A stretch of DNA of 64,000 nucleotides from Escherichia coli (GTDB taxonomy: Bacteria > Pseudomonadota > Gammaproteobacteria > Enterobacterales > Enterobacteriaceae): NCBI RefSeq assembly GCF_003334255.1, contig NZ_QOWU01000013.1; one strand, 5' to 3'. The position numbers and the translations under genes are program-made. Numbering within the stretch: the first letter of the stretch is position 1; every line of letters begins with the position of its first letter. This document shows, piece by piece, positions 1,001 through 5,536 of the stretch. Below the pieces are notes generated by a model. The model was not told the origin of the DNA. It did no database searches and saw nothing but the letters and a program-made list of their open reading frames with translations.

Positions 1001-2017
1001 ATGTCCACATTACGCCTGCTCATCTCTGACTCTTACGACCCGTGGTTTAACCTGGCGGTGGAAGAGTGTATTTTTCGCCAAATGCCCGCCACGCAGCGCG
1101 TTCTGTTTCTCTGGCGCAATGCCGACACGGTAGTAATTGGTCGCGCGCAGAACCCGTGGAAAGAGTGTAATACCCGGCGGATGGAAGAAGATAACGTCCG
1201 CCTGGCGCGGCGCAGTAGCGGTGGCGGCGCGGTGTTCCACGATCTCGGCAATACCTGCTTTACCTTTATGGCTGGCAAGCCGGAGTACGATAAAACTATC
1301 TCCACGTCGATTGTGCTCAATGCGCTGAACGCGCTCGGCGTCAGCGCCGAAGCGTCCGGACGTAACGATCTGGTGGTGAAAACCGTCGAAGGCGACCGCA
1401 AAGTCTCAGGCTCGGCCTATCGCGAAACCAAAGATCGCGGCTTCCACCACGGCACCTTGCTACTCAATGCCGACCTCAGCCGCCTGGCAAACTATCTCAA
1501 TCCGGATAAAAAGAAACTGGCGGCGAAAGGCATTACGTCGGTACGTTCCCGCGTGACCAACCTCACCGAGCTGTTGCCGGGGATCACCCATGAGCAGGTT
1601 TGCGAGGCCATAACCGAGGCCTTTTTCGCCCATTATGGCGAGCGCGTGGAAGCGGAAATCATCTCCCCGAACAAAACGCCAGACTTGCCAAACTTCGCCG
1701 AAACCTTTGCCCGCCAGAGTAGCTGGGAATGGAACTTCGGTCAGGCTCCGGCATTCTCGCATCTGCTGGATGAACGCTTTACCTGGGGCGGCGTGGAACT
1801 GCATTTCGACGTTGAAAAAGGCCATATCACCCGCGCCCAGGTGTTTACCGACAGCCTCAACCCCGCGCCGCTGGAAGCCCTCGCCGGACGACTGCAAGGC
1901 TGCCTGTACCGCGCAGATATGCTGCAACAGGAGTGCGAAGCGCTGTTGGTTGACTTCCCGGAACAGGAAAAAGAGCTACGGGAGTTATCGGCATGGATGG
2001 CGGGGGCTGTAAGGTAG
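1001..2017 (+). CDS. lplA: lipoate-protein ligase A
   Basis: 338-aa [28 protein letters not shown]... recognised as LplA. Confidence 0.97.
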
Positions 2018-3349
2018 TTACCCGCCCATGCGGGCAACTTTCTCTTCGATTTGCCGGATTTTTTCCGGCATTTCTTGCGCAATGTGGCGAAACGCCTCGC
2101 TGATACGCGGATCTCTGGCGACCGTTTGCCAGAACTGCTGCGCCAGCGGGATCGCCGTTAACCAAGCGCTTTTACTGACGTTAAGATCAAACTTCACCTC
2201 AATGGCAGCATCACGCAGCATTCCAGCGCTGTTTGGTGCATAGACCATCGGCAGCATGTCGTAGACGGGCGTCAGCGCAAATGGCGGTTCAGATAAATAA
2301 AACGATAAATTACCTGCGTGCATATCGCTGTTGGCGATAAGTCGCCCAAATGCCCAGATCACTTCTGTTTGCGCCACGCTCTGGTGAGTGACAAGTTGTT
2401 GCTCACACAAACGGCGCATTGCCTGCGGCCACGATCCCGGAGAAGAGATAAACTCACTCTGCACCGCCTCCAGCGACACAATAGGCAAGCGACCATCGTT
2501 ACCTTTGCAGTCAAAGCGTTCCGCTTCGAGGAATACCTGCCTGTTACTTGTTACAAGCACCGTTGACTCGATGGCGTGGATCCCACCGTCACGCAGGATT
2601 TGCGCGGCAATAGATTCAGCAATTAGCAGGTCACCCCAACGTTGGCTGACCGCGGTTTGCTGTGGTACGGTGAATTTCACCAACACATGTTTATTGCCTG
2701 ACGGCGTTTGTGCATAGTAGGTAAATTTTGGCTGCTCGCCGCCCGCAGAAGAACCCACAATTTCTCCTGCCAGTGCATCACTTGCCAGCTGTTCGTAATG
2801 GGTGAGTTTTTGATCCAGAGGAATTTCCGCAGGGTGTTGTGCAGTAATCCATCGCTGATAATTCCCCTCCCCGACCAACCAACCGCCAGTATATTCACCG
2901 TTAAATACGGTCAGGGCGTAGAGCACATCTTCTTCCTGCCAGAGACGTATATCATCAGTCAGATTCAGTTGCGCGGCTAACTTCCTGCCCCACGCGCGCC
3001 CTAAAAAGCCCTGCGGTCGGAGATCGGTCAAATACCAGGGCAAACCATCAAACCACTGTTCGTCGCCATCTGCGCCTGTTACCAGACAACTTCCCTGCGG
3101 CCAGCACAACCGGATGTCGGCGAATTTATGCGCCTTTCCGGTATCGTCCACCCGCCAGACGGGAATACGCTCAATTCCGCGATAAGGACGCAGCAGTGCA
3201 TATCGCGTTGCCCGTGCTTTACCAAAGCGAATCACCCGATCTTCTCTGGCAACAAGGCGTGAGAACGTCGCCTGACTGATTGCCAGACGCTGGCGCAATT
3301 CCGGGGCAGAACGCGGCCCTTGCAGTAAAAGATCAGTCAGCTCGCTCAT
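2018..3349 (-). CDS. yjjJ: HipA-like Ser/Thr kinase with fused N-terminal HTH (YjjJ)
   Basis: 443-aa ORF. The N-terminal HTH reads LTDLLLQGPRSAPELRQRLAISQATFSRL. The C-terminal HipA-type kinase core contains NSDMHAGNLSF. Confidence 0.9.
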   Translation of the reverse strand: MSELTDLLLQGPRSAPELRQRLAISQATFSRLVAREDRVIRFGKARATRYALLRPYRGIERIPVWRVDDTGKAHKFADIRLCWPQGSCLVTGADGDEQWFDGLPWYLTDLRPQGFLGRAWGRKLAAQLNLTDDIRLWQEEDVLYALTVFNGEYTGGWLVGEGNYQRWITAQHPAEIPLDQKLTHYEQLASDALAGEIVGSSAGGEQPKFTYYAQTPSGNKHVLVKFTVPQQTAVSQRWGDLLIAESIAAQILRDGGIHAIESTVLVTSNRQVFLEAERFDCKGNDGRLPIVSLEAVQSEFISSPGSWPQAMRRLCEQQLVTHQSVAQTEVIWAFGRLIANSDMHAGNLSFYLSEPPFALTPVYDMLPMVYAPNSAGMLRDAAIEVKFDLNVSKSAWLTAIPLAQQFWQTVARDPRISEAFRHIAQEMPEKIRQIEEKVARMGG

Positions 3350-3352
3350 TAA

Positions 3353-3385
3353 TGAATAGATTCGTGAATAGATACTTGAATAGAT
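3353..3385 (-). promoter_or_regulatory. three tandem 12-bp repeats (TGAATAGATnnn) abutting the yjjJ start, candidate operator
   Basis: TGAATAGAT occurs at 3353, 3365 and 3377 (period 12), with a fourth copy at 3442-3450. The last repeat ends 3 nt from the yjjJ ATG. Function is inferred only. Confidence 0.35.
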
Positions 3386-3453
3386 TTATTAACACATTTC
3401 ACTGAAAAGTATAGCGAAAATATTCAAGCTGGAGAGAAAAATGAATAGATACT

Positions 3454-3484
3454 AAAAAGCCGGAGCAGTCTCCCGCTCCGGCTT
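3454..3484 (-). terminator. rho-independent terminator of the deo operon
   Basis: Stem gccggagc (3459-3466) pairs with gctccggc (3475-3482). It is followed on the minus strand by a run of 5 T and lies about 30 nt after the deoD stop. Confidence 0.75.
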
Positions 3485-3515
3485 CACAAGGCAATCGCCT
3501 TGCAGCGAAACACAA

Positions 3516-4235
3516 TTACTCTTTATCGCCCAGCAGAACGGATTCCAGTGCGATTTTGATCATGTCGTTGAAGGTAGTCTGACGCTCAGCGGCAGTGGTC
3601 TGCTCGTGAGTGCGGATGTGGTCAGATACGGTGCAGATGGTCAGGGCTTTCGCGCCAAATTCTGCAGCGACGCCGTAGATACCAGCCGCTTCCATTTCCA
3701 CGCCGAGAATGCCGTATTTTTCCATCACGTCGAACATTTCGCCGTCCGGAGAGTAGAACAGGTCAGCGGAGAACAGGTTACCCACGCGAGCATCAATACC
3801 CAGTGCTTTAGCTGCATCTACTGCGTTACGCACCATGTCGAAGTCAGCGATAGCGGCAAAGTCATGGTCTTTAAAACGGATGCGGTTAACTTTGGAATCG
3901 GTGCAGGCACCCATACCGATAACGACGTCGCGCAGTTTTACGTGCGGCAGAACTGCGCCACAGGAACCCACGCGGATAATTTTCTTCACGCCGAAATCGG
4001 TGATCAGTTCTTTGGTGTAGATGGAGCAGGACGGGATACCCATACCGTGACCCATTACGGAAATTTTGCGGCCTTTGTAAGTACCGGTGAAGCCCAGCAT
4101 ACCGCGAACGTTGTTCACTTCACGGGCATCTTCAAGGAAAGTTTCAGCAATATACTTCGCACGCAGCGGGTCGCCTGGCATCAAAACTACGTCAGCGAAA
4201 TCGCCCATTTCTGCATTAATGTGTGGGGTAGCCAT
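3516..4235 (-). CDS. deoD: purine nucleoside phosphorylase DeoD
   Basis: ORF-track frame 3516..4292 trimmed to internal [28 protein letters not shown] (239 aa), the known DeoD N-terminus. Confidence 0.97.
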
Positions 4236-4291
4236 TGTTTTATCCTTTTTGTGACATAACAAAGGCGGAGTCAACGCTCCGCCCAAATCCA

Positions 4292-5536
<1,245 letters not shown>

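Follow-up and report, generated by a model that had tools for sequence, protein, structure and literature searches.

Among the three HipA-type kinases under study in E. coli, HipH (YjjJ) has been associated with growth arrest, with defects in cell division, and, in biofilms, with persistence that depends on c-di-GMP. To our knowledge, its helix-turn-helix (HTH) has no known target, and one genome-wide study concluded that HipH is not a DNA-binding protein. No antitoxin gene has been reported for the HipH clade, and the restraint of the kinase without such a gene is a standing question of the field; the HTH "may function to bind DNA", conserved serines sit beside the Gly-rich loop, and control by autophosphorylation has been suggested (PMC8262856). 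The toxicity of HipH requires the HTH and is abolished by its deletion, the protein is nucleoid-associated and binds c-di-GMP with a KD of 7.6 µM, and c-di-GMP induces hipH via its promoter region (PMC11452175). When provided in trans, HipB can still relieve the toxicity of YjjJ (PMC9948734), and an action in trans has likewise been reported for c-di-GMP. ChIP-exo with chromosomal 8-myc-tagged YjjJ in MG1655 (M9 glucose, mid-log phase) yielded no binding site, the protein's own promoter included (PMC8464067); possible explanations are the C-terminal tag or a native level of expression that is very low, and the result still counts as a real negative.

The hipBA system likewise couples a HipA-family kinase to an HTH directed at several copies of an operator in the system's own promoter, the arrangement predicted here for HipH. 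The presumed purpose is also shared, namely that a growth-arresting kinase is held at a very low level and kept on DNA (PMC8262856). hipBA employs a separate labile antitoxin, HipB, with a Cro/Xre-type HTH, whereas the HTH of HipH is fused to the kinase and is an ArsR/MarR-type winged helix. The operators of hipBA are palindromic, whereas the units described below are direct repeats with a 12-bp period in one orientation. An adjacent antitoxin gene, characteristic of type II toxin–antitoxin (TA) systems, was not found beside hipH in the window, i.e., the whole stretch of 64,000 nucleotides of E. coli DNA analyzed in this work.

The comparisons presented below indicate that the repeats preceding hipH are very probably HipH's own, so far undescribed, candidate binding sites, because their layout follows the kinase across two bacterial classes and their sequence shifts with the DNA-reading helix. 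No description of ATCTATTCA repeats or of HipH direct repeats was found in the literature searched, which returned only unrelated primers and papers.

The hipH Gene and Its Product

Reading of the window placed hipH as a monocistronic gene between deoD and the convergent lplA. The following features were assigned:

2018..3349, minus strand: yjjJ/hipH coding sequence, 443 aa plus stop (ORF list; NF007297; orthologues aligned from Met1)
3185..3349, minus strand: N-terminal winged helix-turn-helix, codons 1–55
2930..3172, minus strand: beta-rich HipS-like/HipA N-subdomain-1-like module, codons ~60–140
2021..2767, minus strand: HipA-type kinase core, codons ~195–443

The ORF matched the NCBIfam equivalog NF007297 (YjjJ; E = 2.7e-203) and Pfam HipA_C (E = 8e-21) and was 100% identical to yjjJ of E. 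coli ER1709. The annotated ATG (3349..3347) is the true start because orthologues of 442–443 aa align from residue 1. The features of HipA-family kinases were all present, comprising the HipA_C core, the Gly-rich loop (SSAGGEQPKF), the catalytic D-x-H-x-x-N motif (NSDMHAGN, with D342, H344, and N347), and the Mg-binding Asp (D364 in YDMLP). An N-terminal extension of ~100 aa with an HTH, together with the monocistronic operon, places the protein in the HipH/YjjJ clade (clade X of PMC8262856).

According to the full-length model, from which the fold assignment was taken, the N-terminal domain is a genuine ArsR/MarR-type winged helix with three helices (residues 3–8, 15–22, and the recognition helix 26–35, 'SQATFSRLV') and a beta-hairpin wing (strands 39–42 and 49–53). 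The HTH fused to a HipA-type kinase core, recognized earlier from the sequence, was thus specified as a winged helix joined to a HipA_C core. A single-sequence AlphaFold model of residues 1–67 as all-helix was discarded as meaningless (pLDDT 68). A phmmer search of YjjJ against the PDB gave zero matches, and structural relatives were reached only by profile search; the best fold matches of HipH were HipA–HipB–operator structures.

Repeat Array Upstream of hipH

A pattern search of the 64-kb window found four exact copies of ATCTATTCA, confined to 98 bp and to one strand, and none elsewhere in the window. Matches with one mismatch numbered seven elsewhere in the window, which is chance level (11 matches in all versus 12.8 expected). 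The 36 nt preceding the ATG on the coding (minus) strand read ATCTATTCAagtATCTATTCAcgaATCTATTCAtta. The features of this region were as follows:

3353..3385, minus strand: proximal array, three ATCTATTCA units with a 12-bp period (3385..3377, 3373..3365, 3361..3353)
3385..3390, minus strand: predicted weak -10 AATAAA, placed from alignment A2, sharing one base with unit 1
3408..3413, minus strand: predicted weak -35 TATACT, placed from alignment A2, 17 bp upstream of the -10
3442..3450, minus strand: distal ATCTATTCA unit in the same orientation as the proximal units, directly 3' of the T-tract of the deoD terminator
3454..3482, minus strand: deoD intrinsic terminator read from the sequence, GCCGGAGC/8-nt loop/GCTCCGGC followed by TTTTT

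The proximal array stops 3 nt short of the ATG, and Tandem Repeats Finder described it with a period of 12 and 2.8 copies. The distal unit lies 65 bp from proximal unit 1 (start to start), and its 3' end precedes the ATG by 92 nt. The description in the earlier note, with three exact 9-mers at 12-bp spacing and a fourth about 90 nt upstream, proved exact. The deoD terminator insulates hipH from the deo operon; it was missed by a simple promoter/terminator scan and was visible by direct reading. A hidden palindrome in unit 3 (GAAT-NN-ATTC) was considered and rejected, as it needs bases of the spacer, which are uninformative across loci.

Translation Start and Predicted Promoter and Leader

A consensus promoter/terminator scan of positions 3250–3600, with the K-12 sequence itself, detected nothing. 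Since the K-12 hexamers AATAAA and TATACT are weak, the placement of the array as the leader was drawn from other species. The counterparts of the -10 were TATAAA in most Enterobacterales and TATAAT, TACAAT, or TATACT in Betaproteobacteria, and TTTAC(C/A) of other genera aligned with the predicted -35. Among sources of transcription-start data, the supplements of PMC3415461 make no mention of yjjJ; a Reg-Seq preprint lists yjjJ among the promoters studied. A leaderless mRNA was rejected, as no -10-like hexamer lies 6–8 nt before the ATG and the good hexamers precede unit 1.

The best duplex of nucleotides -20 to -3 with the 3' end of 16S rRNA had an energy of +0.1 kcal/mol, whereas 32 long ORFs in the window had a median of -3.35. 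The missing Shine-Dalgarno sequence remarked on before was thus confirmed, and it is a conserved property of the hipH family, with a median of +0.6 kcal/mol and 93% of values weaker than -3.5. The predicted K-12 leader with the first codons was under-structured relative to shuffled sequences (z = +2.2), 198 of 200 of which folded at least as well. A scan of the deoD–yjjJ gap gave no plausible ORF, only a 38-aa ORF with a TTG start that crosses the deoD terminator and one of 20 aa within the repeats, which bears out the earlier statement that no antitoxin ORF lies upstream.

Conservation across hipH Loci

A total of 81 hipH loci from Gamma- and Betaproteobacteria were compared, 80 of the 591 detected relatives being retrieved. 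At least two ATTCA-core units at a 12-bp period on the coding strand were present in 71 of the 81, with three units in 46 of the array loci and four in 11. Lack of conservation of the repeats where yjjJ is conserved had been set beforehand as grounds for refutation, and the outcome was decisively the opposite. Autocorrelation of the 60 nt before the start gave a best lag of 12 in 62 of the 81 loci, and successive ATTCA cores were spaced by 12 in 109 cases. The core density was 3.05 per locus upstream versus 0.17 per equal length of coding sequence. Across the 81 loci, the core occurred 247 times on the coding strand and 23 times on the opposite strand, and the spacer positions that a dyad would need carried about 0 bits, which is not the pattern of a palindromic operator.

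A hexamer matching TATAAT in at least five of six positions adjoined unit 1 in 50 of the 71 arrays (3.6 in control windows), and the array ended at most 8 nt from the start codon in 57 of them. The logo across loci resembles a footprint, with unit positions 1–9 conserved (0.65–0.86 bits at positions 1–4 and 1.6–2.0 bits at positions 5–9) and the 3-nt spacers not (0.06–0.30 bits at positions 10–12). In alignment A2, comprising 18 enterobacterial upstream regions, the invariant columns were essentially the four units, while the surroundings varied.

The distal-to-array spacing of 63–66 bp recurred in 16 loci. In Pantoea multigeneris, one variant unit, ATCGTTTCA, was shared by the distal copy and all four proximal ones, and in Pantoea species the distal unit lay upstream even of the terminator of the preceding gene. 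The array was located ~80 nt from the start in Rheinheimera and Chromatiaceae. Period-12 arrays of the ATCTATTCA-type unit were found ahead of hipH in both Enterobacterales and Betaproteobacteria and also on plasmids, and the neighboring genes differed in Betaproteobacteria and on plasmids. A paralogue on the E. coli plasmid pE2-2, only 35% identical, showed TATTGT followed by three units at a 12-bp period.

Covariation with the Recognition Helix

Position 26 in the recognition helix was Gln in 75 of 81 HipH proteins. The six exceptions (five Arg, one Pro) were exactly the loci with ATCG/ATTG-type rather than ATCT units:

L031, L038, and L048: helix 'DRST', units ATCGATGCA/ATCGTTGCA/ATTGATGCA
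L032 ('SRPT') and L081 ('TRPT'): units ATCGTTTCA/ATCGTTACA
L017: helix 'SPAT', four proximal and one distal ATCGTTTCA-type units

Within one genome, all unit copies changed together when the recognition helix of HipH changed. The exceptions span at least three lineages, and the covariation is based on six loci in about three lineages. If the correspondence is true, Gln26 would read unit position 4 and be the predicted specificity determinant, and a Q26R HipH would favor ATCGATTCA or ATCGTTTCA units over ATCTATTCA.

Arrays without hipH

In E. coli, hipH is missing through loss from about three quarters of the genomes, with the array left as an orphan, and ~3,660 complete E. coli genomes retain the array although hipH has been replaced. 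BLAST detected one array per E. coli genome. The hipH-less allele is a precise within-species ORF replacement beginning right after the ATG, with a diverged but homologous promoter. It was for this reason rejected as an argument against the link to HipH, and we read the orphan array as a recent relic rather than as evidence for another binding factor. Retention of the array in these strains is compatible with a relic and would also fit a host factor. Within E. coli, the repeats are not bound to the presence of yjjJ.

In the reverse test, metagenomes were searched for (CTATTCA N5)x3, which gave 120 matches. In 13 of these stretches, a HipH ORF started at most 24 nt downstream. The other 107 were without a HipH ORF, and 74 of them were perfect 12-bp minisatellites unrelated to hipH. 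Among the stretches lacking the ORF, 23 differed at two or more spacer positions, and nine of the 23 were hipH-linked, namely five copies of the E. coli hipH-less allele, three HipH N-termini at contig edges, and one HipH fragment. The statement that arrays occur only at hipH was consequently dropped, as many perfect 12-bp minisatellites and coding repeats of metagenomes fit the bare pattern as well; the specificity of the array for hipH holds only for arrays with heterogeneous spacers.

Discussion

We consider it likely that the HipH winged helix has its cognate operator in the four ATCTATTCA units and that these provide negative autoregulation. One HipH molecule would read one unit, presumably as a monomer, contacting positions 1–4 (ATCT) and 5–9 (ATTCA) and leaving the three spacer bases unread, and monomers would line up head to tail every 12 bp along the three adjacent units. 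As these run from the edge of the predicted -10 to the start codon, neither the transcription start nor any part of the leader would be left uncovered; the fourth unit of Enterobacterales, 65 bp upstream, would flank the promoter from the opposite side. With HipH bound, RNA polymerase would be blocked and the single-gene hipH operon repressed, so that HipH would play in cis the part of HipB in hipBA. It is only from the position of the sites that we read repression rather than activation, and we infer both the physical binding of HipH and the position of the transcription start from sequence comparison. With regard to the autoregulation typical of hipBA-type TA systems, what was found is a conserved and co-varying candidate array between the -10 and the ATG, together with a negative ChIP-exo result. 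A point against the model is that the position of the distal site is approximately that used by class I activators. The 12-bp period exceeds one helical turn, and side-by-side packing of three 49-kDa HipH molecules is a difficulty for the model.

With the leader taken up by the array, the mRNA would lack a Shine-Dalgarno sequence and begin with an A/U-rich, unstructured 5' end, so that translation of a growth-inhibiting kinase should stay low. Binding of c-di-GMP combined with raised hipH transcription is what a ligand-released autorepressor would produce. The earlier note's reading of the repeats as candidate operators for the protein's own HTH gained support from the conservation, the helix covariation, and the winged-helix fold, and its further suggestion that such autoregulation replaces HipB may be correct, with the reservation that HipB in trans can still relieve YjjJ toxicity (PMC9948734).

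The array might instead be bound mainly for control of the kinase, as a scaffold for trans-autophosphorylation or as an inactive nucleoprotein, with DNA and c-di-GMP as the antitoxin and the effect on transcription a by-product. Such a role would agree with the lack of an antitoxin gene in the HipH family (PMC8262856; gap scan in this work), with the conserved serines and the suggested control by autophosphorylation, with nucleoid localization and the loss of toxicity upon HTH deletion (PMC11452175), with the HipS-like module fused in cis, and with the persistence of the array as a single genomic site per genome. We regard it as unlikely, as three to four sites per chromosome hold only a few molecules and the fixed position from -10 to ATG is needed by a transcriptional operator but not by a scaffold. 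A related and bolder version, in which three or four HipH molecules polymerize head to tail on the array as a short filament that keeps the kinase inactive, the DNA being the "antitoxin", c-di-GMP the releasing signal, and the leader perhaps read as RNA, appears rather unlikely. If true, it would account in one step for two effects of c-di-GMP, the derepression of hipH and the change in HipH activity, a single cis element would act on both DNA and RNA, and plasmid HipH paralogues of the same specificity could cross-talk with chromosomal arrays, orphans included.

It is quite unlikely that the repeats act mainly in RNA, through initiation independent of Shine-Dalgarno pairing (e.g., via ribosomal protein S1) or through binding of HipH or another protein to the mRNA to gate translation. 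In 57 of 71 loci, the array does directly precede the start codon, with essentially no anti-Shine-Dalgarno pairing, and the K-12 leader is less structured than its shuffles; however, a role in RNA leaves unexplained the distal unit, which lies upstream of the promoter, keeps both its sequence and its distance of 63–66 bp, and is placed beyond the preceding gene's terminator in Pantoea, as well as the covariation with a DNA-type recognition helix and the arrays far from the start in Rheinheimera and Chromatiaceae. Such a role could also hold in addition to that in DNA. Sites of a different host protein, or a neutral slippage minisatellite adjoining yjjJ by chance, are very improbable. The orphan arrays of E. 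coli, the ChIP-exo result without YjjJ binding, and the frequency of metagenomic 12-bp minisatellites with the same core (74 perfect among 120 matches) speak for such readings. The array nevertheless accompanies hipH into Betaproteobacteria and onto plasmids among differing neighbors, its cores are kept while the spacers drift, which is the opposite of slippage, and the unit copies of a genome switch together with the recognition helix. As the hipH-less allele is a within-species replacement, there has been too little time for the orphan arrays to decay.

The autoregulatory operator proposed here offers a simple hypothesis for promoter-level induction by c-di-GMP, and the very low native expression of hipH would be explicable by a weak promoter, an operator over +1, and the lack of a Shine-Dalgarno sequence. 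The consensus A-T-C-T-A-T-T-C-A plus 3 nt, in three to four copies, provides a DNA probe, and a putative orphan operator copy is present in most E. coli strains.

The cis grammar of StbA/stbDR of plasmid R388 is nearly that of the 9 + 3 bp HipH units; the likeness is one of layout, and StbA has an 11-bp period, regulates plasmid segregation and conjugation, has no kinase, and belongs to another HTH family. TubR is a winged-helix protein that binds as a dimer in an unusual mode. TubR–tubC of pBtoxis has the same 12-bp period and a similar two-cluster layout, a resemblance of layout only, whereas its function is plasmid partition, not gene autoregulation, and its units are more numerous. The hipH promoter has the layout of these systems, with at least three same-orientation units of ~9 bp and 2–3-bp spacers.

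The N-terminus of HipH superposes on ArsR/SmtB and MarR repressors at 1.5–2.3 Å over ~55 residues and matches their Pfam models. These repressors are typically autoregulatory and ligand-released, which would fit the binding of c-di-GMP to HipH. They act as homodimers on inverted repeats, whereas HipH has no dimerization helices, its ~55-residue domain running directly into the HipS-like beta module followed by the kinase, and is associated with direct repeats. If the proposed autoregulation is true, a TA-like kinase family would use head-to-tail reading of direct repeats by a fused winged helix, in contrast to the palindrome-plus-dimer arrangement of hipBA.

Repeat units upstream of hipH

The window is K-12-like E. 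coli DNA, and its region 1900-3600 was 100% identical to strain ER1709. The features around yjjJ (hipH) were arranged as follows:

1001..2017, plus strand: lplA, convergent to yjjJ
3349..2018, minus strand: yjjJ/hipH, 443 aa
3482..3454, minus strand: deoD terminator hairpin, read by eye
3516..4292, minus strand: deoD
deoD-yjjJ intergenic region: 166 nt

The annotated yjjJ ATG was accepted as the real start because the alignment with orthologues (442-443 aa) begins at Met1. The sequence ATCTATTCAagtATCTATTCAcgaATCTATTCAtta, reported before this ATG in an earlier note, was confirmed letter for letter, and the fourth copy of ATCTATTCA claimed upstream was present at 3450..3442. In a pattern search of the 64 kb, exact copies of ATCTATTCA were limited to these four, all on the same strand, while copies with one mismatch occurred elsewhere in the window at chance level. 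Tandem Repeats Finder assigned a period of 12 to the proximal array. Two further claims of the same note also held: the search for upstream ORFs gave no credible separate antitoxin gene, and yjjJ lacked a Shine-Dalgarno sequence, its anti-SD duplex reaching +0.1 kcal/mol compared to a median of -3.35 for the long ORFs of the window.

Conservation of the array was evaluated in 80 retrieved hipH loci, one genome per species (Enterobacterales, Betaproteobacteria and a few Chromatiales and Alteromonadales), giving 81 with the window. At least two in-phase units were found at 71 of the 81 loci, three in 46 cases and four in 11, which answers positively the question of whether the repeats are conserved where yjjJ occurs. 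Autocorrelation of the 60 nt before the start gave 12 as the best lag in 62/81. In the 172-nt upstream regions, the ATTCA core was counted 247 times on the coding strand versus 23 on the opposite one; this amounts to 3.05 cores per locus, compared to 0.17 in an equal length of coding sequence. Consecutive cores were mostly 12 bp apart (n = 109), less often 11 bp (n = 10) or 63-66 bp (n = 16), the last class corresponding to the distal site.

In the 12-nt logo, ATTCA (positions 5-9) carried 1.6-2.0 bits, A-T-C-T (positions 1-4) 0.65-0.86 and the three spacer positions 0.06-0.30, a profile that resembles a footprint. Across 18 aligned enterobacterial upstream regions, the invariant columns were essentially the four units, and the 56 nt separating the distal and proximal sites varied freely in sequence at nearly constant length. 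In several betaproteobacterial loci (L034, L036, L053, L058 and L078-L080, e.g., Comamonadaceae, Limnohabitans, Gallionella and Burkholderiales), the cores were 11 bp apart or just one or two clear units were present; the family thus shows some departure from the 12-bp period.

Predicted promoter and leader

A hexamer with at least five matches to TATAAT adjoined unit 1 in 50 of the 71 arrays, compared to 3.6 in control windows farther upstream. It usually ended exactly at unit 1 or one base inside it, typical junctions being cTATAATATCTATTCA in Betaproteobacteria and gcTATAAATCTATTCA in Enterobacterales. In 57/71 loci the array ended no more than 8 nt from the start codon. From this -10-like hexamer and the position of the array end, we infer that transcription would begin within unit 1 and that the leader would be built of units. 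Such a leader would agree with the weak anti-SD pairing of hipH starts, 93% of which were weaker than -3.5 kcal/mol (median +0.6). Compared with shuffled controls, the predicted K-12 hipH leader had less structure (z +2.2). The K-12 promoter elements predicted from the enterobacterial alignment were weak (TATACT and AATAAA, 17 bp apart), and for this reason a consensus promoter scan of the K-12-like region found nothing.

Six betaproteobacterial hipH promoters (L049, L054, L061, L067, L070 and L072) had in common a block similar to gcgatattttt…tgaacctcaaatc(g/a)cc, which lay approximately 20-60 nt 5' of the array and directly before the -10 hexamer. This block may represent a conserved -35/UP region, or another factor may bind there.

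N-terminal domain and covariation with the units

When 24 diverse HipH N-terminal domains were scanned one by one, 14-20 of them matched HTH_5, HTH_20 or MarR models (best E 1.5e-9). These matches support the N-terminal HTH proposed earlier for YjjJ and make its 'non-HTH' label in a ChIP-exo survey (PMC8464067) untenable. No solved HipH structure was found.

In 75 of the 81 HipH proteins, residue 26 in the recognition helix was Gln (motif S-Q-(A/P)-T-x-S-R). The six remaining proteins belonged to exactly those loci whose units start with ATCG or ATTG rather than ATCT. The helix was D-R-S-T in Rheinheimera, Alishewanella and a Chromatiaceae bacterium, with units ATCGATGCA, ATTGATGCA and ATCGTTGCA, and two Burkholderiales had S-R-P-T and T-R-P-T with ATCGTTTCA and ATCGTTACA. 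Pantoea multigeneris had S-P-A-T with three ATCGTTTCA and one ATCATTTCA as proximal units and ATCGTTTCA as the distal one. With Gln proteins, G at unit position 4 was found in just 12 of 210 tallied units. The change was concerted, every copy within one genome being altered, including the distal copy. The pairing of Arg-for-Gln with G-for-T is what direct base readout would predict; the sample is small, comprising about three independent lineages, and the partition is without exceptions.

In Rheinheimera and Alishewanella (ATCGATGCA / ATTGATGCA units), the main array lay about 80 nt upstream of the hipH start. An extra exact unit, encoding I-D-A, was observed within the first hipH codons of two loci (L031, about 3001-3012; L048, about 2992-3003).

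Arrays without hipH

Most of yjjJ was present in only 1,346 of 5,425 matching complete E. coli genomes, about three quarters being without hipH. In the hipH-less allele (e.g., E. coli LAU-OXA, L001 1651-2040, corresponding to window 2018-3450), approximately 290 bp replaced the ORF from just past the ATG to the lplA stop and contained, on the opposite strand, a pseudogene of the Xre HTH type (Pfam HTH_3) with an internal stop. This allele retained the four units at unchanged spacing, together with a promoter that was diverged yet alignable. The 49-nt array region was found in 5,008/5,426 E. coli genomes, nearly always once per genome. We read the array of hipH-less E. coli as a predicted, recently orphaned operator. 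Since the array tracks hipH into unrelated neighbourhoods in species other than E. coli, its persistence here does not speak for a different binding factor. In metagenome contig OBWK01000401.1 (L138), a K-12-type hipH promoter (…cagtgaaatgtgttaataa) was joined to the hipH-less downstream segment, a recombinant allele which suggests that the two E. coli haplotypes exchange at or inside the repeat array.

In the reverse test, metagenome contigs were scanned for (CTATTCA N5)x3, yielding 120 stretches; in 13 of them a HipH ORF began no more than 24 nt downstream. Among the other 107, 74 were perfect 12-bp minisatellites with identical spacers, 10 differed at one spacer position and 23 at two or more; thus the bare pattern is not unique to hipH. 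Of the 23 heterogeneous stretches, five were the hipH-less E. coli allele, three stood at contig ends that contained the beginning of a HipH-like N-terminus, and one was followed by a HipH fragment, so heterogeneous-spacer arrays appear to be largely hipH-linked. Environmental metagenomes commonly contained perfect 12-bp minisatellites that include CTATTCA, reach up to 23 units and are unrelated to hipH (L083, L100, L108, L115, L128, L166 and others). Pattern-only searches for the hipH operator will also gather them.

Plasmid homologues

The E. coli plasmid pE2-2 (NZ_CP048917.1; L203 1420-1510) encoded a HipH paralogue with 35% identity to chromosomal HipH and the same Gln-type recognition helix. 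Its upstream region consisted of TATTGT, three ATCTATTCA units at a 12-bp period, a 17-nt gap and the ATG. Paralogues of this type were noted on about 30 plasmids of E. coli, which measured roughly 92-98 kb and were typed as non-mobilizable. Plasmid HipH could conceivably cross-talk with arrays on the chromosome, orphan arrays among them. The HipH homologue of Aeromonas caviae plasmid pKAM329_1 (L204 1440-1500; 38% identical, helix ISQPTLSR) had ATCCATTCA as the only clear unit before its ATG, perhaps accompanied by a degenerate second one. This locus seems to depart from the general pattern, and the array is therefore not universal.

Proposed regulation and known systems

The best-supported reading is a predicted negative autoregulation of hipH by HipH through the units. 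HipH molecules would bind the 12-bp-spaced units head to tail, covering +1 and the leader; the distal unit 65 bp upstream would assist binding in Enterobacterales, and the SD-less leader would keep translation low. HipH, a clade named by Gerdes et al., is nucleoid-associated, requires its HTH for toxicity and binds c-di-GMP with a KD of 7.6 uM (eLife 2024, PMC11452175); kinase activity of YjjJ and its rescue by HipB in trans were shown by Gratani et al. (PMC9948734). Transcription of hipH increases with c-di-GMP, an effect lost after replacement of the native promoter (PMC11452175). Should HipH bind its predicted operator less tightly in the presence of c-di-GMP, as we infer, this promoter-level induction would follow directly.

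The one direct test, ChIP-exo of chromosomally 8-myc-tagged YjjJ in M9 glucose, gave zero sites (PMC8464067). Native expression is likely very low (weak promoter, no SD), so this result weakens the autoregulation model and does not refute it. As a rival, the array may be a scaffold or sequestration site controlling the HipH kinase. A leader acting at the RNA level may well coexist with a DNA role, but it cannot account for the distal unit or for the covariation between helix and units. If the units were instead bound by some unrelated host factor, or formed a minisatellite that is neutral, their association with hipH across classes, the drift of the spacers and the change of all units in concert would be difficult to explain.

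The gene hipH and its family are already known. The repeats are not mentioned in Gerdes et al., PMC9948734 or PMC11452175, and literature searches for the repeat sequence or 'direct repeats' gave nothing relevant; judged by the searchable literature, the predicted operator is new, and so are its architecture and the predicted specificity determinant. Functionally, hipH would resemble hipBA in its predicted autoregulation, but the antitoxin gene, Cro-type HTH and palindromes of hipBA are absent. In its cis grammar the array comes nearest to the direct-repeat arrays that HTH proteins read, a likeness of layout only. One preprint (bioRxiv 10.1101/2022.04.29.490116) describes two of these: the autoregulatory StbA/stbDR system, with 9-bp units and 2-bp spacers in arrays of 2-5, and TubR/tubC, with seven 12-bp repeats in two sets.
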